Positions 7,677 through 21,273 are shown, counted from the first letter of the stretch. The stretch is DNA of 21,382 nucleotides from Myxococcota bacterium (GCA_041288095.1 JBGGMJ010000032.1:1-21382); one strand, 5' to 3'. Made by a program: numbers and translations. The notes: generated by a model not told the origin, from the letters alone.

Positions 7677-8204
7677 ATGGCGGACGTGGTCGAGGTCGCG
7701 TCGAGTGGACGCGCCAAGTGCCGAGGCTGCACCAAGCCCATTCCCAAGGACGACCTGCGTTTCGGTGAGCGCGTGCCCAACCCCTTCGCGGAAGGCGAAG
7801 CCGAGCTCACCTATTGGTTCCATGTCCGCTGCGCCGCTTTTCGCCGCTGCGAGCGCTTCGTTACGCTGACGCCCGAGCAGCTCGAAGGCATCCCCGATGC
7901 CGCGGTGCTCAAGGAGCGCGCCGAATTCGGTGTGGCGCATCATCGCTTGCCACGCATCGACGGCCTCGAGCGCGCCAAGTCCGGCCGCGCCAAGTGCAAG
8001 CAGTGCAAGGAGAGCATCGACGCCCAGGTGCCGCGCATCGTCCTCGCGTTCTGGGAGGAAGGGCGCTTCGGGCCGATGGGGTTCGTGCATCTCAACTGCG
8101 CGCCGGCCTACTTCGAGACCCCCGCGATTGTTCCGTGGCTCACGCATGCGGCGCCCGAGGCCACCGCCGACATGGCGAGCGAGATCGCCGCCGCGCTCGC
8201 ATAG
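7677..8204 (+). CDS. protein with two PARP-type zinc fingers
   Basis: VEVASSGRAKCRGC...LRFG...WFHVRC and LERAKSGRAKCKQC...FVHLNC are two copies of the E.A.SGRA.CxxC...HxxC zf-PARP signature. Confidence 0.85.
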   Translation: MADVVEVASSGRAKCRGCTKPIPKDDLRFGERVPNPFAEGEAELTYWFHVRCAAFRRCERFVTLTPEQLEGIPDAAVLKERAEFGVAHHRLPRIDGLERAKSGRAKCKQCKESIDAQVPRIVLAFWEEGRFGPMGFVHLNCAPAYFETPAIVPWLTHAAPEATADMASEIAAALA

Positions 8205-9369: not shown

Positions 9370-9398
9370 TCGCCGAGTCGCCGCCGGCGGCCGTAGTG
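9370..9398 (+). promoter_or_regulatory. candidate ECF-sigma promoter, copy 1
   Basis: TCGCCGA-N13-GCCGTAGTG, with the same boxes and spacing as 10318-10346. Confidence 0.55.
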
Positions 9399-9431
9399 CC
9401 GGGGAAAGGGAGCACGAAGCCCCCGGAGAAC

Positions 9432-10256
9432 ATGATGAAATTATCGAAGGCACTTCTCGTGACGGGCGCGTCCCTCATCCTTATCGCCTGCGGCAACGAC
9501 GGCGACTCACGCGTCTCCCTCGCGGTCGCGGTCAGGGGCAGCAACGCCAATGCGCTGTCGGCCGAGGTCGTCAGCACACCCGGCGGCGCCGGTCTCACGC
9601 TTTCGGATGGCACCAACACTTTGCTGATTACCGCCGCGGAGGTCGTGTTGCGTGAGATCGAGCTGGAGCGCGACGACGTCACCGATTGCGACGGCGACGA
9701 CGATGGCCGCGACGGCTGCGAGAAATTCGAGACCGGCCCGCGTCTCGTCAGCCTGCCGCTCGACGGCGGTGTCGCCGAGCAGGTGATCACCGCCGTGCCC
9801 GAAGGCACCTACGATCGCCTCGAGCTCGAGATTCACAAGCTCAGCGACGACAACGGCAGCGACATCTTGCGCGAGCGGCCAGATCTCGCGGACGTGAGCA
9901 TTCGCGTCGTCGGCACCTTTAACGGCGCGGCCTTCGTCTTCGTGAGCGACGAGTCGTTCGAGCAACGCGTCGAGCTCGACCCGCCGGTTGTCGTTGGCGC
10001 GGGCAACGCCGACGTCAACGTGACCCTGTCAATCGATCTCGCAAGGTGGTTCTCGACCGCGGCGGGCATGCTCGTCGACCCGAGCCAGGCGGCCGACACC
10101 ATCGAAGAAGGCATCGACGGTACCTTCGCTTGCTTCGAGGACGACGACCATGACGGTGACGACGATGGCCCGCTGCACGACGTCGGGGACGACCACGGCG
10201 GCGATGATGACGCCGGAGACGACGACTCCGGCAGCGACGATGCGGACGACTACTGA
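9432..10256 (+). CDS. lipoprotein, DUF4382-like beta-sandwich, paralog A, with Asp/His-rich tail
   Basis: GGAG SD, MMKLSKALLVTGASLILIAC lipobox, VPEGTYDRLELEIHK, acidic C-terminus. Confidence 0.78.
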   Translation: MMKLSKALLVTGASLILIACGNDGDSRVSLAVAVRGSNANALSAEVVSTPGGAGLTLSDGTNTLLITAAEVVLREIELERDDVTDCDGDDDGRDGCEKFETGPRLVSLPLDGGVAEQVITAVPEGTYDRLELEIHKLSDDNGSDILRERPDLADVSIRVVGTFNGAAFVFVSDESFEQRVELDPPVVVGAGNADVNVTLSIDLARWFSTAAGMLVDPSQAADTIEEGIDGTFACFEDDDHDGDDDGPLHDVGDDHGGDDDAGDDDSGSDDADDY

Positions 10257-10281
10257 GACAGGCGCCGACATCGACCCACCC

Positions 10282-10312
10282 TGTGTCCGCTTCGGCGGAC
10301 ACAAGTGTTTTT
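10282..10312 (+). terminator. hairpin/intrinsic terminator candidate
   Basis: TGTGTCCGC-TTCG-GCGGACACA is a perfect 9-bp stem with a UUCG loop, followed by AGTGTTTTT. Confidence 0.6.
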
Positions 10313-10317
10313 AACAA

Positions 10318-10346
10318 TCGCTGAACGAAGGACGACCGCCGTAGTG
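10318..10346 (+). promoter_or_regulatory. candidate ECF-sigma promoter, copy 2
   Basis: TCGCTGA-N13-GCCGTAGTG, matching 9370-9398. Confidence 0.55.
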
Positions 10347-10387
10347 ATGAAAGAGGCTCACCCCAGAGCCAATTGGAGATTGTAGCA

Positions 10388-11128
10388 ATGCGACACTTCC
10401 CCCTGATTCTTGCTTCGTGCGTCTTGGCCACCGCGGCCGCTTGTGGCGACGGCACACCCGAGGTGCGCATGGCCCTGGCCGTGCGTGGCACGAACGCCAA
10501 TGGCCTGTCCGCCGCGGTGACGGCGACCGCTGGCGCCGGCGGCTTGGCGCTCGAGGACGGTGCCAACACCATCCTCATCACCAGCGCCGAGATCGTCCTC
10601 GAGGAGATCGAGCTCAAGCGCACCGAGGCGAGCGCGTGCCCCGAGGTTGGCGACGCCGACGATGATAGCTGCGAGAAGTTCGAGACCGGCCCGCGGCTCG
10701 TCGCTCTACCGCTGGACGGCAAGGTCACGCACGAGCTCGCAACCGTGGTTCCCACTGGGAGCTACGACGAGCTCGAGTTCGAGATCCACAAGCTCGAGGG
10801 CTCGGGTGGCAGCGACATCCTGCGCGACCGACCCGACCTCGCCGGCCTCAGCATGCGAGTCGCCGGTACGTACAACGGCACCCCCTTCGTGTTCGTCAGC
10901 GAGGAGTCGCAAGAGCTCGAGCTCGAGCTGTCGCCACCGCTCGTCGTCGACGCGGACGGGTCCGACGTCAATCTCACGCTCTCAGTCGACCTCGCCGCGT
11001 GGTTCACGACGGGCGCGGGCCTGCTAGTGAATCCGACGGTGCAGAGCAGCGCCGATATCATCGACAACAACATCGACCAGTCGTTCGAGTGCTTCGAAGA
11101 CGATGACCACGATGGTAGTGACGACTAG
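10388..11128 (+). CDS. lipoprotein, DUF4382-like, paralog B
   Basis: GGAG SD, MRHFPLILASCVLATAAAC lipobox. Long near-identical stretches with paralog A (CEKFETGPRLV.LPLDG, GSDILR.RPDLA, CFEDDDHDG). Confidence 0.78.
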   Translation: MRHFPLILASCVLATAAACGDGTPEVRMALAVRGTNANGLSAAVTATAGAGGLALEDGANTILITSAEIVLEEIELKRTEASACPEVGDADDDSCEKFETGPRLVALPLDGKVTHELATVVPTGSYDELEFEIHKLEGSGGSDILRDRPDLAGLSMRVAGTYNGTPFVFVSEESQELELELSPPLVVDADGSDVNLTLSVDLAAWFTTGAGLLVNPTVQSSADIIDNNIDQSFECFEDDDHDGSDD

Positions 11129-11156
11129 AGCCACAGTGAAAGACGCGTAGGTCCTG

Positions 11157-11840
11157 ATGTCCTGCATCTTGTCCGAAGATCGAGCCTTGCTCGACCGCTT
11201 CCGCGGAGGTGAGCGCGACGCGCTGACGGTGGTGTTCACGCACTACGCGCCGCACGTCGCCTCCCTCTTGAAGAGCGGCTTCGGATTTTCGGCCGGCGGG
11301 CAGCGCGTCCGCTTTGGCGGCTACAAGCGGGTGTTCGAGCTGGAGGATGCCTTGCAAGAGGTCTTCAAGCGCGCCTTCTCGGAGCGAGCTCGCATGAGCT
11401 ACGACGGCCTGCGACCGTACGCCGCGTACATGGCCGTGATCGCGCGCAACCTGGTGATCGACCAGTATGCGTCCCGCCGGCGAGAGCTCTTGCACTTCAA
11501 CTTCGAGGACAGCACCACGGCCAACGACGACGACTCGCCGGCCCCGGGGGGCAGACCCGAGCGAGAGCTCCTCGCGAGCGAGCTGCGCGGCGTCATCGAC
11601 GACTTTCGCGCGAAGCTGGACGAGCGCGAGCAGACCATCTTCAAGCTACGCTTCGAAGAGAACCTGTCACATGCCGGCATCACCGAGCGGACCGGGCTCA
11701 CGGCATCGCAGGTCAAGACGACGGAAGCCAAGCTGCGCGGCGCTCTCATGCGGCATCTGCGCAAGCACGGCTACCTCGACGAACGAGCAGCTCACGTGAC
11801 GCCCGCGGCCGAGGTCGCGCCGTCAGGAGAACACCGATGA
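11157..11840 (+). CDS. ECF-type sigma-70 family RNA polymerase sigma factor
   Basis: DRALLDRFRGGERDAL, EDALQEVF..AF, YDGLRPY..Y...IARNLVID (region 2), LDEREQTIFKLRFEENLS...I...G.T...VK (region 4). Confidence 0.92.
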   Translation: MSCILSEDRALLDRFRGGERDALTVVFTHYAPHVASLLKSGFGFSAGGQRVRFGGYKRVFELEDALQEVFKRAFSERARMSYDGLRPYAAYMAVIARNLVIDQYASRRRELLHFNFEDSTTANDDDSPAPGGRPERELLASELRGVIDDFRAKLDEREQTIFKLRFEENLSHAGITERTGLTASQVKTTEAKLRGALMRHLRKHGYLDERAAHVTPAAEVAPSGEHR

Positions 11841-12658
11841 ATCACAACCGCGCGTTGCGCGACACACGAATCCTGGTCTCGAAGGGACTGCCTCCACGAC
11901 GGCATCGCCGCCTGCGCGAGCACCTGCGCGGCTGCGATGATTGCTTGCGGCACTACGAGCGTCTGCGAGCCGTCGAAGATGCGCTGACGCCGGCGGCGGT
12001 AATGTCGGCGGCGGCGCTCGAGCGCATCGGCGCCTTGGTGATCGACGATTCGGGCCTCGAGCGGGCACCGCGGCGCGGCTGGGCCATGCTGGGAAGCCTC
12101 GCGACAGCGACCGCGCTGGCGGTGACACTCGTGCTGGTGATGCCACGCGGTGGCGACGACGAGCTCACACCACGAGGCACCGGGCTCGCCAGGACGGCGC
12201 ACGGCCTTGGGGCCTTCATCGTCGATCCGGCACACGCCGAAGTCACGCGGCCGGCGCTCGTCGCCGGTCGGCGGATCGTGGTGCCCGAGGGCAAGGTCGT
12301 GCAGCTCGCCTACCGCAACTCCGCGTTTCGCTACGTGGTCGTCGTCGGCATTGATGCGACCTACGAGATGCAGTGGTACCATCCGAGCGAAGTCGAGCGA
12401 GCCTCGGGTGGCGTCGCGCTCGTCGCGGGGGCGGTGGATGAACCGCTGCCGGGCGCTTGGAGCATCGACCGCGACATGACACCGCAGCGCCTTTTCGCGA
12501 TCTTCGCCGATGCGCCGATTGCCGCCGATGTGGTCGAGCGGGCGGCCCTTCGTCTCCGCGAAAGCGGACAAGCGCCGATCGACGTCGAACGGTTGCCCGG
12601 CCTTGCCTACGCCCAGGACAGTCTCGTCCTCGTCGCCGAGGAGCACCCGCAACGTTGA
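11837..12658 (+). CDS. zinc-binding (ZAS) membrane anti-sigma factor with extracytoplasmic domain
   Basis: HLRGCDDC (HxxxCxxC) at 11921-11944, single TM (WAMLGSLATATALAVTLVLVM), beta-rich DUF4384-like C-domain. ATGA overlap with the sigma gene. Confidence 0.82.
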   Translation: MNHNRALRDTRILVSKGLPPRRHRRLREHLRGCDDCLRHYERLRAVEDALTPAAVMSAAALERIGALVIDDSGLERAPRRGWAMLGSLATATALAVTLVLVMPRGGDDELTPRGTGLARTAHGLGAFIVDPAHAEVTRPALVAGRRIVVPEGKVVQLAYRNSAFRYVVVVGIDATYEMQWYHPSEVERASGGVALVAGAVDEPLPGAWSIDRDMTPQRLFAIFADAPIAADVVERAALRLRESGQAPIDVERLPGLAYAQDSLVLVAEEHPQR

Positions 12659-13506
12659 TGAGCTCGTCGCGCGCCATATCCACGCTCGCCGCCGCCTTGG
12701 CGATCGTCGCCACCGCGTGTGGCCTCGACCTCACGCGCCGCGACGGTGAGCTCTCGGTCGTGTTGCTCGACAACGAATCGTTTCGCGATGCGGAAGCGGT
12801 CATTCGGGTCGAGCACGACGACGTTGCATCGGAGACGCGTCACGACGTCGCCAACGAGATCTTCCTGGAGTCGGTGCCCGCCGGCAGCTGCCGAGTAAGC
12901 GCCGTCATCACCGGCCACGCGCTGGTCTCCAATCGCCAGCGGGTCTACATCTACGAGACCACGCGCGCGAGCATCGGCCTGACGTTCTTCGCCGCGTCCG
13001 CCGGAGCGGACGACGACGACTCCGATGGCGTCGACAACCTCGAGGACAACTGCATCACCGTCGCCAATCCCGAGCAGAGCGACGAAGACCACGACGGCGT
13101 CGGCGATGGCTGCGACAATTGTCCGGCGTTCCCTCATCCGCTGCAGACGAACAGTGACGGCGACGTTTTCGGCGACCTGTGCGATCCCGACATCGACGGA
13201 GACGGAGCGCTCAACGTGCAGGACGCCTGTCCGCGCGACGCCGGCGGCAGCATCGATAGCGACGGTGACCGCGTCTGCGACGGCAGCGATACCTGTCCCA
13301 ACCGAGACAATCCAACGCAGGACGACTGCGACGACGATGGTCTCGGCGATGCGTGCGACACGGACATCGACGGCGACGGTATCGCCAACGACGCCAGCGA
13401 CAACTGCCCATTCGCGTGGAATCCTAGTCAGCAGGACGGCAACGGTGACGGCATCGGCGATGCTTGCGTGACCGACGCCAATGCTTGCGTGTCGGAGGCA
13501 CCATGA
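12658..13506 (+). CDS. lipoprotein with thrombospondin type 3 (Ca-binding) repeats
   Basis: TGATG coupling; lipobox IVATAC; repeated D.DGDG..D.CDNCP...NP.Q units. Confidence 0.88.
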   Translation: MSSSRAISTLAAALAIVATACGLDLTRRDGELSVVLLDNESFRDAEAVIRVEHDDVASETRHDVANEIFLESVPAGSCRVSAVITGHALVSNRQRVYIYETTRASIGLTFFAASAGADDDDSDGVDNLEDNCITVANPEQSDEDHDGVGDGCDNCPAFPHPLQTNSDGDVFGDLCDPDIDGDGALNVQDACPRDAGGSIDSDGDRVCDGSDTCPNRDNPTQDDCDDDGLGDACDTDIDGDGIANDASDNCPFAWNPSQQDGNGDGIGDACVTDANACVSEAP

Positions 13507-14096
13507 GACGGGGCATGTTGTTGTTGGCCTTGTTCCTCGCGGCTTGCGGCGACGAGGCGCCGGAGGGCGATGACCCACCGGATGGCGAAAACCTCATACG
13601 CGTGTCCCTGGGCGTCACCGGTAACGACGATGGACGCATCTATGCGCTCCTCATGCGATGCTCGCGCGTAATCGTCAAAATGAGCGACGGCGACGATATC
13701 GTGGGACCCGCCTGGAACGCCGACGTGTTGCGCGGCGCCTTCCTCCTCGAGCGCCGCAGCGACGCCCTCCCCCGCGAGGTCGAGCTGCGGTTCGAGCATC
13801 CACCCGACGGCAGCGGTGTCGTCCCGGGTGAAGAGCTCGCGGTATTCGTCGGCGGCCTGGTCGAGGAAGAAGCATTCGAGTACCGGGCCGAGGAGCTCGA
13901 GAGCGCCAGCGTCACCGTGACCACGCCGCGCATCGACCTTCGCTTCGACGTTTCGCGGTGGCTGAATGGGCTCACGCGTGCCAGCTTCGAGGGCCAACAG
14001 CCCTACCGCGTGGATGAGCAGAACAACGAGCAGATCGCGCAGGACCTCGAGGAGGTCATCTCGGACTCACTCACCGTATGCAGCGAATGCGACTAG
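13503..14096 (+). CDS. lipoprotein, possible distant DUF4382-like paralog
   Basis: MRRGMLLLALFLAAC lipobox. IDLRFDVSRWL resembles TLSIDLARWF of paralogs A/B. ATGA overlap. Confidence 0.7.
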   Translation: MRRGMLLLALFLAACGDEAPEGDDPPDGENLIRVSLGVTGNDDGRIYALLMRCSRVIVKMSDGDDIVGPAWNADVLRGAFLLERRSDALPREVELRFEHPPDGSGVVPGEELAVFVGGLVEEEAFEYRAEELESASVTVTTPRIDLRFDVSRWLNGLTRASFEGQQPYRVDEQNNEQIAQDLEEVISDSLTVCSECD

Positions 14097-15595
14097 CCAC
14101 CCTCATCGCCACCCTAGCGATGCTCCCGCGCGCGGCGTTCGCGGACGAGGGCATCCGTGTGTTCGTGGTCATCGTGGCGAATAACGGCAGCTACGATGGG
14201 ACGCGCCCGCCGCTGCGCTTCGCCGACGACGACGGCGTGCGCTATCGCGAGCTGTTCCGGCTCTACACGGAAGACGTCGAGCTCTTCACGGTGATGGACG
14301 CCGACACCCAGCAAACGTTCGCCGACGCCGTGCCCAACGCGAAGCTGCCGCGTCGTAGCGAGCTCTTCGAGGGACTGCAGCGGACCTTCGACAAGATCCG
14401 CGCGGCGCGCGCGTCCGGCGCACGCACCGCCTTCTATTTCATCTACTCGGGACACGGCGATGTCCGCGATGGCGTTGGCTTCGTGCACCTCCTCGACGGC
14501 CCCCTGACGCGTCAGGACCTCTACGCCAAGGTGATCGAAGCCTCCCCCGCCGACGTCAACCACGTGGTCGTCGACGCGTGCAACGCCTACTTCATGGTCG
14601 CGAGCCGCGGCAAAGGCGCGAAGGCCGCCGGCGACTACGCCGGGCTCGTGAAGACGCTGGTGAGCCGCGAGACCCTCGACGCCCACCCGAACACCGGCGT
14701 CGTGCTCGCGACGACCACCGCGGCCGAGGTCCACGAATGGAGCCGGGTCGAGGCCGGCGTCTTCTCCCACGAGCTGCGCACGGCGATGAGCGGCGCCGCC
14801 GACGCCAACGGAGACGGCGCCGTGAGCTACGACGAGGTCGCGGCGTTCCTCGCGGCGGCGAATGGCGGAGTGCCCGATCCCAAGGCCCGCGTGCAGGCGC
14901 TCACGAGACCGCCGCGTCAGAACCTCGCCGAGCCTTTCGTGCGCGTGACCACCCAGGGGTCGGCCGCGGTGTTCCCGAAGGAATGGAAGGGACGCTTTTA
15001 CGTCGAGGACGACCGGCGCGTGCGTTTTGCCGACCTCAACAAGGCCGCCGGCCAGGACCTGACCCTGCATCTCGTACCGCGACCCACGTACTATGTGCGC
15101 GCGGGCGATCGCGAGTACCGCCTGGGGCAGACCAACGCGGGGACGAGCCACGATCTGGGCAGCACGCCAGCCGATCCGATCTCCGTCGCGGCTCGCGGGT
15201 CAGCCGAGGATCAACTCGACGCCCATCTGTTCGCGGTCCCCTATGACGGCGAGTACGCGCGCGGCTTCGCGCAAGCACGCGCGCTCTCCGACGACCCGCT
15301 GGCGGTGACGCTCGACGCGCCGGCACCGCCACCGGCGGATCGCCTTGCACCGTGGAAGATCGGCGCCTTCGCGGTCGCCGGCAGCACCGCAATCGCCGCG
15401 ACGGTGCTCGAGATGATGGCGCGCCACGACGCCGAGCTCTACCGGGACTCCGCCGGCAGTCGCGAGGACGTGCGCGCCCACCGTGAGCGGGCGGATGCGC
15501 AGCACGACGCCGCGGTGGTCCTGGGCGCCGTCGCCGGCGGTGCGCTGCTCTCGGCCGGGGGCATGTACTTGTATCAGTGGCTCGCGGAGGACTGA
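14087..15595 (+). CDS. exported caspase-fold (peptidase C14 / orthocaspase-like) protease
   Basis: Signal peptide MRLATLIATLAMLPRAAFA; LRFADDD; catalytic dyad YSGHG (His 14453) and VDAC (Cys 14579); EF-hand-like DANGDGAVSYDE; C-terminal pair of hydrophobic helices. Confidence 0.88.
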   Translation: MRLATLIATLAMLPRAAFADEGIRVFVVIVANNGSYDGTRPPLRFADDDGVRYRELFRLYTEDVELFTVMDADTQQTFADAVPNAKLPRRSELFEGLQRTFDKIRAARASGARTAFYFIYSGHGDVRDGVGFVHLLDGPLTRQDLYAKVIEASPADVNHVVVDACNAYFMVASRGKGAKAAGDYAGLVKTLVSRETLDAHPNTGVVLATTTAAEVHEWSRVEAGVFSHELRTAMSGAADANGDGAVSYDEVAAFLAAANGGVPDPKARVQALTRPPRQNLAEPFVRVTTQGSAAVFPKEWKGRFYVEDDRRVRFADLNKAAGQDLTLHLVPRPTYYVRAGDREYRLGQTNAGTSHDLGSTPADPISVAARGSAEDQLDAHLFAVPYDGEYARGFAQARALSDDPLAVTLDAPAPPPADRLAPWKIGAFAVAGSTAIAATVLEMMARHDAELYRDSAGSREDVRAHRERADAQHDAAVVLGAVAGGALLSAGGMYLYQWLAED

Positions 15596-16113
15596 TCCGT
15601 CGCGAGCGCGGCGCCAGCGCCTGCACCCACGAGTCCGAGCACGCGGGCGATGGCCGGCTCATGCGCGGCCATGGCTTCGGCGGTTGGCCGCGCCGTGACC
15701 ACGAGATTCACGGCGGCTTGCTCGACGAGCCCCTGCCATGCGGGCTGCCAAGCTTTGTTCCAGCGCGTCCACGGCATGAACGTCGTGCGCAGAATGGTTC
15801 CCATGCCGCCGGCGCTATCCTGGCGCAGCATGTCGTCGGAATAGGTCACGGCGTGACCCGCGACGTTGCCGTAAGCATCGATGGCGCGGTGGGCCGACAA
15901 GGTCACGGCCTTCACCGTGTGAATGATAGCGGACCCGAGCGGCGCTCCCGCGGCGCGCGCATCCGCCATTGCGGACTTGGGGCTTACGAAGCTGGCGCGC
16001 CAGATACCGAACGGCTTACTCGCCGCCGTCTGGGCGGCGCGAAACTCGGCGACGGCCGCATCGGAGCGGCTCCAGTCGTAGGGGCGCGTTAGGGGTGTGA
16101 GTAGGGTCGTCAT
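15574..16113 (-). CDS. hypothetical protein (179 aa)
   Basis: GAGGAG SD before ATG 16113. 3' end overlaps the caspase 3' end by 22 nt. No recognised domain. Confidence 0.6.
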   Translation of the reverse strand: MTTLLTPLTRPYDWSRSDAAVAEFRAAQTAASKPFGIWRASFVSPKSAMADARAAGAPLGSAIIHTVKAVTLSAHRAIDAYGNVAGHAVTYSDDMLRQDSAGGMGTILRTTFMPWTRWNKAWQPAWQGLVEQAAVNLVVTARPTAEAMAAHEPAIARVLGLVGAGAGAALATDQSSASH

Positions 16114-16123
16114 CGCGGTCTCC

Positions 16124-16519
16124 TCAGGTGACGTTATCGACGTAGTCGCGAACGTCGCCGACAGCCGCGCGAACGCTCTCCGCGAGCGGCGCGAGGTCGG
16201 GGCGCGCGGCGGCAATGCGGGTCAGCGTGCGACTCACGGTCGCGGCGTGAATGCCCGCGAGTTGGGGGAACTTCGACCAACGTTCGATGTCGCCCGCCTT
16301 CGCGGCAAAGCTATCGAGAGCGGCCGTGGAATCAACGGGCGCGCCCGAGAGGCCATTCAGCAACGCGTTCGATGCGGTCCCGAGCTTCTCGAGCTCGCCG
16401 TCGAAGTCCTTGGCGTTCGCGCTCCGAGCGATGTCAGCCACGTGCGGCGCGATCGAGGCGTTGAAGCGGGTGAGGCGGGTGTACAGAGCTTGCGCCAATT
16501 TATCGTTGGTCACGGTCAT
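16124..16519 (-). CDS. hypothetical helical protein (131 aa)
   Basis: Protein-like composition; fills the gap, 10 nt upstream of the next gene on the same strand. Confidence 0.65.
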   Translation of the reverse strand: MTVTNDKLAQALYTRLTRFNASIAPHVADIARSANAKDFDGELEKLGTASNALLNGLSGAPVDSTAALDSFAAKAGDIERWSKFPQLAGIHAATVSRTLTRIAAARPDLAPLAESVRAAVGDVRDYVDNVT

Positions 16520-19656: not shown

Positions 19657-21273
19657 ATGCGGCGGCATCAAATCATCCTTCCCATGGCGCTCCTGTTCGC
19701 GGGCGCTTGCACCGGCGAGATCGGTGACACGGGCCCGTCGACGCTGACGCCCGAACCACTCGTGCTCATGGCGCCACAGGTGCGGCGACTCACGGCGCTG
19801 CAGTACGGCAACACCGTCCGCGCGGCTCTCGGCGACGTCTTCCAGACGGCGGACTTCCCGTTGTTCAACGACGATATCCCGACCTTAGGCTTCGCCAACG
19901 ACGCACGGATCCTGCGAATCAGCGACACCAACATCGAGTCCCTCTACAGCCAGACCTCGGGCCTCGCGGCGCGCGCCGTGGTCGCGGTGCCGCGGCTCGC
20001 TGCCTGCGTGTCCGCGACAACCGACACGTGTTTCGGGACGCTGCTCGACGAGCTCGGGCCGCGCTTGTGGCGACGACCGGTGACCCAGGAAGAGCGCGAC
20101 GACCTCCTGGCGACCGTCGCTGGAGTCGCCGCGTCGACCACGCGAGCGGAGCGCGTCGAGTTGCTCGCGCACATCCTCCTCGCGTCGCCCCACCTCCTCT
20201 ACCGCACCGAGCTCGGCGTCCTCGATGAGAGCCTGGCGTCCCTCACCGATTACGAGATTGCGAGCGCCCTGTCATACGCCCTCTGGAACGGCCCCCCCGA
20301 CGACGAGCTCTTCGACATCGCCGCCGGCGGCGCGCTTCACGACGAAGCGACGCTCTTGTCTCAGGTGCAACGTCTCACCGACGACGAGCGTTACGTCGAG
20401 GCGCTCACCGAATTCTATATCGACTACCTCAAGCTCGACACCCTGCTGACGAAGACGAAGCTACCGTCGCTCGGCCTCACGCCCGAGGTCCGCGCCGCCC
20501 TCATTGCCGGTGCCCGCGAGGACATCCGCGCCACCTTCCGGCAAAGCGGAGCGACTCTCGCCGACCCCTTCGCATCGCAAGCCGCGCACATCAATTCTCT
20601 CACCGCGCCATTTTTCGGGATGACCTCGGGCTCGGCGGCGCTGCAGAGCGTGGCGCTTCCGCCAAGTGAGCGACACGGCGTCCTCACCCATCCGGCGTTC
20701 CTCTCGGTCCACGCAGGTGAAGGCGAGAGCGGTATCGTCAAGCGCGGTGTCTTCACGCTCGAGCAACTCTTGTGCTTCGGCTTGGGCTCACCGCCCGACA
20801 ATGTAACGCCGCTCACCGAGCTGCCCCCCGGCTTCGACCCCGCGAACGAGACCTCGCGACGCGTGCTCTTCGTCCAACACACCTCGCAAGCCGCGTGCAT
20901 CGGGTGCCATCAGATCATCGATCCAGCTGGCGCGGGCTACGAGAACTTCGACGCCGCTGGCCGCTATCGCACCACCGAAAAAGCGGCGAACCTCCCCATC
21001 GATGCTTCGGGCGAGCTGCGCATCGGCGAGGAGGTCCTCACCTTTGCCAACAGCGTCGAGTACGCCCAGGGCCTCGCGGGCTCGCAAGGCCTGCGCAGCT
21101 GTCTGGCCGAGCGTTTCGCTACTTATCTATTCGGCGGGCCACCCAACGACGTCGAGCGCTACCGCTTCGTGGACGCTGTCCGCGAAGCGAGTCCGGACAT
21201 CAAACGTATCGCCGAGCTCCTCGTCGCGAGCCCCAGCTTCGTCCAGCGCGAGCTACCGAGGAGCACCCCATGA
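19657..21273 (+). CDS. DUF1592/DUF1588/DUF1595-type lipoprotein with CxxCH motif
   Basis: Lipobox FAGAC; RRLT..QY.NTV; SPHLLYRTELG; LTDYEIASALSY.LW..PPD; GVLTHPAFL; CIGCH (20896-20910); ENFDAAGRYR. Confidence 0.88.
   Translation: MRRHQIILPMALLFAGACTGEIGDTGPSTLTPEPLVLMAPQVRRLTALQYGNTVRAALGDVFQTADFPLFNDDIPTLGFANDARILRISDTNIESLYSQTSGLAARAVVAVPRLAACVSATTDTCFGTLLDELGPRLWRRPVTQEERDDLLATVAGVAASTTRAERVELLAHILLASPHLLYRTELGVLDESLASLTDYEIASALSYALWNGPPDDELFDIAAGGALHDEATLLSQVQRLTDDERYVEALTEFYIDYLKLDTLLTKTKLPSLGLTPEVRAALIAGAREDIRATFRQSGATLADPFASQAAHINSLTAPFFGMTSGSAALQSVALPPSERHGVLTHPAFLSVHAGEGESGIVKRGVFTLEQLLCFGLGSPPDNVTPLTELPPGFDPANETSRRVLFVQHTSQAACIGCHQIIDPAGAGYENFDAAGRYRTTEKAANLPIDASGELRIGEEVLTFANSVEYAQGLAGSQGLRSCLAERFATYLFGGPPNDVERYRFVDAVREASPDIKRIAELLVASPSFVQRELPRSTP

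Follow-up and report, generated by a model that had tools for sequence, protein, structure and literature searches.

In classical regulated intramembrane proteolysis (RseA/DegS/RseP, RsiW/PrsW/RasP), an extracytoplasmic site-1 cut licenses a site-2 protease. Here we describe a locus from a soil bacterium of the Myxococcota (GCA_041288095.1, JBGGMJ010000032.1; contig C32, analyzed over its full 21,382 nt and hereafter called the window) that encodes a sigma factor of the extracytoplasmic function (ECF) type, a predicted single-pass anti-sigma factor and a predicted exported caspase-fold protease, which may act as the site-1 enzyme on that anti-sigma. Like the classical systems, this one has a single-pass anti-sigma with an N-terminal sigma-binding domain, and RseP homologs (RseP-type Peptidase_M50 genes) are present in the genome, which measures 5.85 Mb, is 90% complete and has a G+C content of 64–71% over the studied region. 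Unlike them, its proposed site-1 enzyme is a caspase-fold cysteine protease from the same operon rather than a serine protease or metalloprotease encoded elsewhere.

The closest described system is DdvS/DdvA of Myxococcus xanthus, for which caspase-like self-cleavage has been proposed as the first step before RseP, and whose authors show that RseP acts on the anti-sigma when the periplasmic domain is missing (Sci Adv 2024, PMC11506125). Both systems pair a myxobacterial ECF sigma factor with a single-pass zinc-binding anti-sigma (ZAS), and DdvA, as solved in that study, carries a periplasmic caspase-fold module whose His-Cys dyad faces a flexible linker beside the membrane helix. That module is a TPR-CHAT region of ~900 residues fused to the anti-sigma, with an incomplete active site and a proposed trans action within a dimer, whereas the protease considered here is the product of a separate C14/metacaspase-type gene, with its own predicted signal peptide, EF-hand and membrane hairpin. 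The present anti-sigma has no fused protease and is only 273 residues long, of which ~150 form a DUF4384-like sandwich. The reported DdvS regulon is an island of CBASS (antiphage signaling based on cyclic oligonucleotides) and CRISPR genes, whereas Pfam scans of the window's open reading frames (ORFs) found no defense genes. The present module is a split, C14-type, CRISPR-independent, calcium-loop-bearing counterpart of DdvA, and a far more numerous one.

The gene association itself was already noted in 2012, when Asplund-Samuelsson et al. found that M. xanthus DK1622 has five metacaspases, four of them predicted to share an operon with a factor of the sigma-70 family, and reported the same for Anaeromyxobacter, Haliangium, Sorangium, Ralstonia and Fibrobacter (PMC3501461). 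That survey concerns co-occurrence only; its main text does not use the term "anti-sigma", and its passages on these operons offer no topology, cleavage site or mechanism. In the Csx29/Csx30/CASP-sigma and SAVED-CHAT/PCaspase systems, as described, the inhibitor of a sigma factor is cut by a protease of the caspase fold, which thereby controls the sigma factor, but these systems are cytoplasmic, triggered by RNA or cyclic oligoadenylate, and CRISPR-encoded. The present module is predicted to be periplasmic, its protease having a signal-peptide-like N-terminus, and has no cas genes nearby: Pfam named no Cas family in any of the window ORFs scanned, which sets the locus apart from the CRISPR-linked caspase-sigma systems. 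A first-pass annotation made from the sequence alone had envisaged a CRISPR-independent pathway.

More distant parallels are found in neighborhoods that combine an EACC2-caspase with an ECF sigma factor and in the ECF54 group of Actinobacteria, whose neighborhood includes caspase-fold CHAT and CarboxypepD_reg proteins and for which proteolytic control has been proposed (Casas-Pastor 2021 supplement; PMC8999054). ECF54 belongs to another phylum, has no anti-sigma and combines CHAT with TPR plus a subtilase, and its neighbors are not described there as periplasmic C14 proteases. In the 2021 ECF classification, neither "caspase" nor "C14" appears in the main text or in part of one supplement, and the group of the present sigma factor may be in the remainder. 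Our literature search found no paper in which an anti-sigma is the target of a C14 protease that is periplasmic and separately encoded. What is new here is a conserved Arg-Gly juxtamembrane site in the anti-sigma, a similar motif in a loop of the protease and the protease's metacaspase-type DxC motif.

A conserved core of sigma factor, anti-sigma and caspase

Seven genes lie on the forward strand within 9432–15595, in the order lipoA, lipoB, sigma factor, anti-sigma, TSP3 lipoprotein, lipoD and caspase-fold protein. The last five (11157–15595) overlap in an operon-like manner, as the first-pass annotation had observed. The sigma stop codon is overlapped by the anti-sigma ATG at 11837 (ATGA), TGATG (12656–12660) joins the stop of the anti-sigma to the start of TSP3, the TSP3 stop and lipoD start read ATGA at 13503, and the caspase ATG (14078) lies upstream of the lipoD stop (14096), giving a 19-nt overlap; an alternative ATG for the caspase gene is found at 14087. 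The sigma factor (11157–11840) is an ECF (group 4) member by its TIGR02937 score (70.6 bits against a cut-off of 42.9) and because Sigma70_r2 and r4 are its only sigma regions (Pfam, NCBIfam).

Conservation of this arrangement was assessed in loci picked by caspase similarity alone. Forty came from 41 related genomes, 26 of which, including the window's own, had a match; a further 80 were the best among 422 confirmed loci (at least 599 pattern matches) in a species-level genome collection. After removal of 11 duplicates, 109 loci remained, and 93 of them had an ECF sigma gene no more than 3.5 kb upstream, which is 93 of the 100 with enough upstream DNA. The sigma gene was on the same strand in 77 (median gap 937 nt) and divergent in 16. 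Seven loci had no upstream sigma gene despite at least 2.5 kb of DNA, two of them (L079 and L088) with a sigma/ZAS pair farther upstream, and nine had too little upstream sequence. As a control, the 3.5 kb downstream of the caspase contained a sigma gene at only 2 of 89 loci. The gene between sigma and caspase almost always encoded a protein of 200–330 residues with one hydrophobic helix near residue 85–110, giving the usual order of sigma factor, single-pass membrane protein and caspase.

The reciprocal search led to the same association. Among 59 sigma homologs (E ≤1e-15) in the same 41 genomes, 26 were directly upstream of a caspase match, including 15 of the 17 best, as judged by cross-reading the two tables. 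A second sigma group, with ~36% identity, mostly one copy per genome and also present in caspase-free genomes, had no caspase link; in the three loci fetched for it (L153, L154 and own-genome C203:33349-34032, + strand), neither the anti-sigma family nor a nearby caspase was found. Genomes can contain several copies of the module, the largest number of caspase matches in a single genome being 11. Across 53 triads, the distances between sigma factors are correlated with those between caspases (r = 0.76), a value to which shared phylogeny contributes. The family was found in Myxococcus, Corallococcus, Pyxidicoccus, Hyalangium, Archangium, Haliangium, Nannocystaceae, Polyangia and Bradymonadia.

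Taken by gene order across these loci, the conserved core is sigma factor, anti-sigma and caspase, with TSP3 and other lipoproteins as lineage-specific additions. The first-pass annotation, which staked its proposal on the caspase being kept beside homologous sigma/anti-sigma pairs and suggested a neighborhood survey of the sigma homologs, was right on that point, though it missed both the 2012 metacaspase-sigma operons and DdvA. Its inclusion of the TSP3 lipoprotein, lipoD and lipoA/B as parts of the system did not hold: these are confined to the genus or order and fall outside the core.

Several loci are worth recording in their own right. On contig C188 of the window's own genome (116591–118936, + strand), a distant sigma factor, a single-pass protein with "VKGS" past its membrane helix and a weak caspase homolog (E 2.7e-7) possibly form a third, divergent module. 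Three caspase-linked sigma homologs (G015:C21:35230-35898, G025:C25:70263-70895 and G032:C48:44856-45476) each contain one in-frame TGA, which could reflect a pseudogene, an assembly error or read-through. Large secreted CarboxypepD_reg proteins recur beside the triad (L031, L038, L040, L045), and CarboxypepD_reg and CHAT proteins likewise occur together in the actinobacterial ECF54 neighborhood.

The predicted protease and the Arg-Gly site of the anti-sigma

The caspase-fold protein (14078–15595, + strand; 505 residues) is borderline by sequence, with a Peptidase_C14 (PF00656) score of 21.5 bits against a gathering score of 21.4 and no match in NCBIfam. Its AlphaFold2 model (36 homologs in the alignment; pLDDT 83.7, pTM 0.74) has an N-terminal helix (the predicted signal peptide), an alpha/beta domain (residues 24–275), a beta-sandwich (290–365; ~14954–15181) and a C-terminal helical hairpin (417–501). 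Foldseek matched the model to MALT1 caspase-Ig3, Arabidopsis metacaspase 9 (AtMC9), yeast Yca1, Trypanosoma brucei MCA2 (TbMCA2) and Geobacter GSU0716 (E 2.9e-7 to 8.2e-5), confirming a caspase(-hemoglobinase) fold at the level of the model. By sequence profile, the caspase part matched GSU0716 with an E-value of 0.014, aligning SGHG with YSGHG and DAC with DSCHSG. The protein belongs to a divergent subfamily of Peptidase C14.

A profile search of 1.84 billion cluster representatives gave 14,435 matches at E ≤1e-3, 4,752 at ≤1e-10 and 1,262 at ≤1e-30, and the 150 best were used for conservation counts. The catalytic His of SGHG (His126, 14453–14455) and Cys of DAC/DxC (in Asp166-x-Cys168, 14573–14581) are invariant in all 36 aligned homologs and in all 150 representatives, as are, in the latter, the Asp of DxC, Asp49 and Glu217. 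Alignment numbering counts from the ATG at 14087, where H123, C165 and R370 stand for His126, Cys168 and Arg373 of the 505-residue protein. Cleavage after Arg or Lys, as in metacaspases, rather than after Asp is suggested by the motifs, by the invariant acidic residues D47, D49, D163 and E217 and by the S1 residues of MALT1 and TbMCA2. Orthocaspases are reported to cleave behind basic residues (PMC6426788).

The protease also contains the loop DANGDGAVSYDE (14801–14836), a canonical 12-residue DxNxDGxxxxxE EF-hand loop flanked by helices. It matched EF-hand 1 of Entamoeba calcium-binding proteins with solved structures (E 1.1e-5), and its positions are kept in 147–150 of the 150 representatives. 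Hydropathy, the positive-inside pattern and the model together predict a signal peptide (14078–14143) and two C-terminal hydrophobic helices (~15353–15421 and 15509–15583). A hydrophobic stretch occurs in the N-terminal extension before strand 1 in 143 of the 150 representatives. In the part past residue 300, 88 of them have two hydrophobic segments, 23 have one, 5 have three and 34 lack any. Because the catalytic and EF-hand residues are invariant or nearly so and hydrophobic segments recur at both ends, we read the protein as a predicted exported, usually membrane-tethered, active and calcium-binding metacaspase-type enzyme. This accords with the first-pass annotation in its intact His/Cys dyad, in its predicted location on the same extracytoplasmic side as the anti-sigma C-domain, and in the calcium-binding-type motifs of both the protease and the TSP3 lipoprotein (TSP_3, 88.4 bits).

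Between the sandwich and the predicted tether, a low-confidence loop (residues 369–376, pLDDT <50) contains Arg373 within A-A-R373-G-S (15188–15202). Arg or Lys occupies this position in 36 of 36 and 150 of 150 homologs, with Gly next in 141 of the 150 and Ala or Ser before it in 105, giving an (A/S)-(R/K)-G motif. In some metacaspases, such as AtMC4, the active site is occupied by the enzyme's own cleavage site as long as calcium is absent, and by analogy we read the motif as a putative site of autoprocessing or a pseudosubstrate. The caspases of Myxococcaceae and Archangiaceae stop shortly past the Arg-Gly motif and have no membrane helices; the hairpin is encoded by the next gene, which is lipoprotein-like.

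Seven loci of these families (L097, L102, L119, L128, L133, L138 and L140; e.g., L119:1791-3829) have a sigma/ZAS pair divergent from a caspase of ~420–450 residues. In loci of this type, the overlapping next gene encodes a lipoprotein-like product with a two-helix hairpin end resembling the C-terminus of the window caspase, as if protease and anchor had here been divided between two genes in nature. The caspase at L032:2483-4246 (− strand) and its duplicate L073 has no hairpin; its longer C-terminus ends in an aromatic residue, possibly another (outer-membrane?) type of anchor, and a very large TSP3/TIG protein follows it.

The anti-sigma (11837–12658, + strand) follows the sigma gene directly and carries the zinc motif H29-x3-C33-x2-C36 (HxxxCxxC; 11921–11944), placing it among the class I ZAS anti-sigmas. 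Its zf-HC2 score is 20.3 bits, below the cut-off of 22.2, and 11 of 23 homologs match that family. The model (pLDDT 82.5) consists of four N-terminal helices (3–71), a low-confidence stretch (87–116) comprising the predicted membrane helix (~12083–12142) and linker, and a beta-sandwich (121–267, pLDDT >90; ~12197–12637). DUF4384 (PF14326) scored 12.3 bits against a cut-off of 27 for the window protein and 16–21 bits in 9 of the 23 homologs; structural neighbors in the Atlas combine zf-HC2 with DUF4384 in Myxococcota, Fibrobacterota and Acidobacteriota. Foldseek of the C-terminal domain against the PDB gave no match at E ≤1e-3. The sandwich weakly resembles the lipid-binding sandwiches of RhoGDI, UNC119 and PDE6-delta (E 4.6e-3 and weaker), and the four lipoproteins in the locus prompt the mere thought that it could sense acyl chains or lipoproteins.

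Within the linker, Arg113-Gly114 (12173–12178) is a candidate site-1 cleavage site, predicted to lie in the periplasm next to the membrane. In the alignment of 23 anti-sigmas (~20% identity), only five columns reach 90% conservation, Arg113 among them. An independent set was drawn from 53 sigma-adjacent proteins, 46 of which fitted the family profile. There it is the most conserved column of the protein, with Arg in 43 of 45 sequences, whereas the cysteines of the zinc motif are kept in 36 of 44. Numbering outward from the proposed cut after P1, the pooled 58 anti-sigmas have a basic P1 in 57 (Arg 54, Lys 3), Gly or Ser at P1' (44 and 9), Ala or Pro at P2 (31 and 13), Phe, Leu, Trp or Tyr at P4 (45) and Glu at P5 (23). 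The site lies a median of 13.5 residues (range 6–30) past the hydrophobic core, with a median of 147 residues remaining after it. In the window's own genome, an Arg motif past the membrane helix occurs in both caspase-linked anti-sigmas and in 1 of ~17 other sigma-adjacent membrane proteins. This conserved basic residue sits in a predicted flexible linker, inside the low-pLDDT segment of the model, and gives the site-1 idea a concrete candidate.

A putative envelope signaling role and its alternatives

The analysis shows the order of the genes and its conservation, the fold, the invariance of the catalytic and calcium-loop residues, and a basic residue kept in the linker. Building on these, and predicting the topology, the preference at P1, the cleavage, its dependence on calcium and the promoter that the sigma factor recognizes, we favor a reading that we consider about evenly poised between right and wrong: the locus is an envelope signaling module in which the protease acts as site-1 enzyme on Arg113 of the anti-sigma. 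A periplasmic cue would lead the protease to cut after the Arg of (D/E)-hydrophobic-x-(A/P)-Arg-Gly, ~10 residues outside the membrane, removing the sandwich domain and leaving a short stub. The stub would then be a substrate of the site-2 protease RseP, and the released sigma factor would drive a shared promoter before lipoA and before lipoB-sigma-antisigma-TSP3-lipoD-caspase, amounting to positive autoregulation. The EF-hand could represent a calcium requirement, as in metacaspases, and the TSP3 and acidic lipoproteins could be lineage-specific outputs or modulators. The observation behind the first-pass annotation, which had proposed the caspase as site-1 protease, is confirmed, and its interpretation is partly supported.

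Several points weigh against this reading. The sigma/anti-sigma pairs at L151 and L152 keep the Arg motif with no caspase in the 2.8–5 kb downstream; either a caspase acts there in trans or the Arg has another role. The protease's own Arg-Gly motif is kept in the untethered caspases of Myxococcaceae and Archangiaceae, and therefore is not simply a site for release from the membrane, and 34 of the 150 protease representatives have no C-terminal hydrophobic segment at all. High-GC proteomes are rich in Arg, Gly and Ala, and the reason for keeping an Arg-Gly could be structural. The related genomes surveyed are non-independent samples, and the sandwich can only be called DUF4384-like because all of its DUF4384 scores are below threshold. 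Complex prediction for protease residues 22–400 with anti-sigma residues 104–273, both supplied as alignments, scored 0.18 and 0.02 against a mark of 0.32, which speaks neither for nor against binding. Profile comparison of the two proteins found no common domain, and within-locus covariation of P1, P1' and P2 between the anti-sigma and protease motifs had no pattern in 33 of 53 rows, nearly all of them being R-G in both, which makes the comparison uninformative.

Alternatively, the protease may be an output of the sigma regulon, processing or shedding envelope proteins or executing envelope damage or cell death, while another protease, or a ligand at the DUF4384-like domain, inactivates the anti-sigma. 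Operon membership alone would be compatible with this, varied large secreted proteins (TSP_3, CarboxypepD_reg, FG-GAP, PQQ_2, RCC1) adjoin the triad in many loci, and the caspase-less pairs at L151 and L152 retain the Arg motif. The 2012 survey, too, treated prokaryotic metacaspases mainly as cell-death factors (PMC3501461). However, the accessory proteins vary by lineage while the order of sigma factor, anti-sigma and caspase stays, the lipoA/B proteins have no conserved Arg motif, and the top-conserved residue of the anti-sigma fits both the expected basic P1 preference and the protease's own loop motif; we regard an output role as unlikely, though deserving of serious attention. Signaling could also run in reverse, with the sandwich inhibiting or docking the protease, the Arg-Gly linker serving as bait or pseudosubstrate, and sigma release as a side effect signaling that the protease has become active. 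Fusions of DUF4384 to orthocaspases are known (PMC7475262), and the sandwich shows weak similarity (E 4.6e-3 to 3.4e-2) to RhoGDI/UNC119-type folds and a proteinase inhibitor from Bacillus, but these fold matches are below usual significance (none at E ≤1e-3), and the constant presence of a sigma factor in the module argues for transcription as its purpose. This reversal seems to us improbable.

Finally, the genes could be neighbors without a functional link, their Arg-Gly columns being structural or compositional. The borderline caspase Pfam score and the abundance of Arg and Gly in the genome would suit such a view, but an upstream sigma gene in 93 of the 100 informative loci, compared with 2 of 89 in the downstream control, the start/stop overlaps and catalytic residues kept in 150 of 150 homologs leave it with hardly any credibility.

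If the site-1 reading applies beyond this locus, calcium-dependent metacaspases of the periplasm, a large family known mainly from Myxococcota (1,262 clusters at 50% identity, E ≤1e-30), may be dedicated site-1 proteases of the anti-sigmas in their own operons, sharing an A/P-Arg-Gly site cut between Arg and Gly and also carrying such a site for self-processing. We propose this generalization tentatively and think it somewhat more apt to fail than to hold. The role of bacterial caspase homologs is a long-standing question in which debate has mostly concerned cell death and few substrates are known. If correct, the proposal would, for the first time, define physiological substrates for orthocaspases of bacteria and assign these enzymes to signaling rather than death, add a cysteine-protease class to the site-1 enzymes of ECF signaling, and make fused DdvA and the present split design two solutions to one problem. 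If incorrect, the module would still mark a large, uncharacterized ECF sigma group with a fixed three-gene core. The hypothesis names a protease, a substrate, a scissile bond and a read-out promoter, and the family occurs in tractable Myxococcus species.

Lipoproteins, promoter-like motif and neighboring genes

The two upstream genes, lipoA (9432–10256, + strand; lipobox LIAC, Asp-rich acidic tail) and lipoB (10388–11128, + strand; also with a lipobox), encode lipoproteins that are 59% identical paralogs. Each is preceded, 35–45 nt 5' of its start codon, by a promoter-like bipartite motif consisting of TTTCGTCGC, 17 nt and CCGTAGTG. The copy before lipoA (TCGC-N17-CCGTAGTG) spans 9370–9398 on the + strand, where the first-pass annotation began the locus; position 9370 belongs to this motif, and no gene starts there. 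The second copy (10318–10346, +) precedes lipoB and the sigma operon. The motif is found upstream of six of six lipoA/B-type genes in four genomes of the genus (the window's and three sisters). Genome-wide, a loose pattern had five matches, two of them at this locus, against 12 for a reversed control; the pattern is no rarer than its control, and the specificity of the motif therefore rests on conservation, not rarity.

Behind lipoA lies a terminator-like hairpin (10282–10313, +; nine pairs, six of them G-C, then TTTTT), which recurs in the alignment with L024, and the gap between the lipoB stop (11128) and the sigma ATG (11157) is only 28 nt. Because of the shared motif, the hairpin and this short gap, lipoA is probably a separate single-gene unit, while lipoB to caspase appears to form one autoregulated operon, of which lipoB would be the first gene. 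The idea that the upstream lipoproteins are induced targets of the system stood in part: both genes carry the same conserved motif and therefore look like regulon or operon members, but lipoB more likely heads the sigma operon than forms a target of its own.

The lipoproteins have restricted distributions. The lipoA/B type is present in the genus and one other genome, and lipoD (13503–14096, + strand), the fourth lipoprotein, is genus-specific, found by tblastn solely in L024–L026. TSP3 genes, represented here by a lineage-specific accessory lipoprotein with calcium-binding-type repeats (12658–13506, + strand), occur only among closer relatives, sometimes downstream of the caspase. No Pfam family was found for lipoA, lipoB or lipoD, and the L029 homolog of lipoA matched DUF4382 at 24.3 bits, just below the cut-off of 25. 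We do not claim lipoD as a paralog of lipoA/B: BLASTP covered only the signal peptide and first strand (E 0.012), and a MAFFT alignment was unconvincing. We rejected lipoA/B as protease substrates, since the "AVRGS/T" of the window proteins has its Arg in only four of seven lipoA/B-type sequences; with no conserved Arg motif, nothing marks them as such.

On contig C114 of the same genome (L148:184-1605), the promoter-like motif also occurs ~90 nt upstream of a gene for a secreted DUF4215 cysteine-rich-repeat protein, a candidate regulon member. Its Gly-Cys and hydrophobic C-terminal tail are presumably MYXO-CTERM-like. Elsewhere in the window, the Pfam scan named no family for the ORFs at 15574–16215 and 16124–16519 and for several others. 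The product of the gene at 7677–8204 (+ strand) is 175 residues long and has two zinc fingers of the PARP type (zf-PARP, 73.5 bits), a domain uncommon in bacteria, and that of the gene at 19657–21273 (+ strand) is a lipoprotein-like protein with the PSD3/PSD5/PSD4/PSCyt3 (DUF1587/1595/1592/1588) set known from Planctomycetes.

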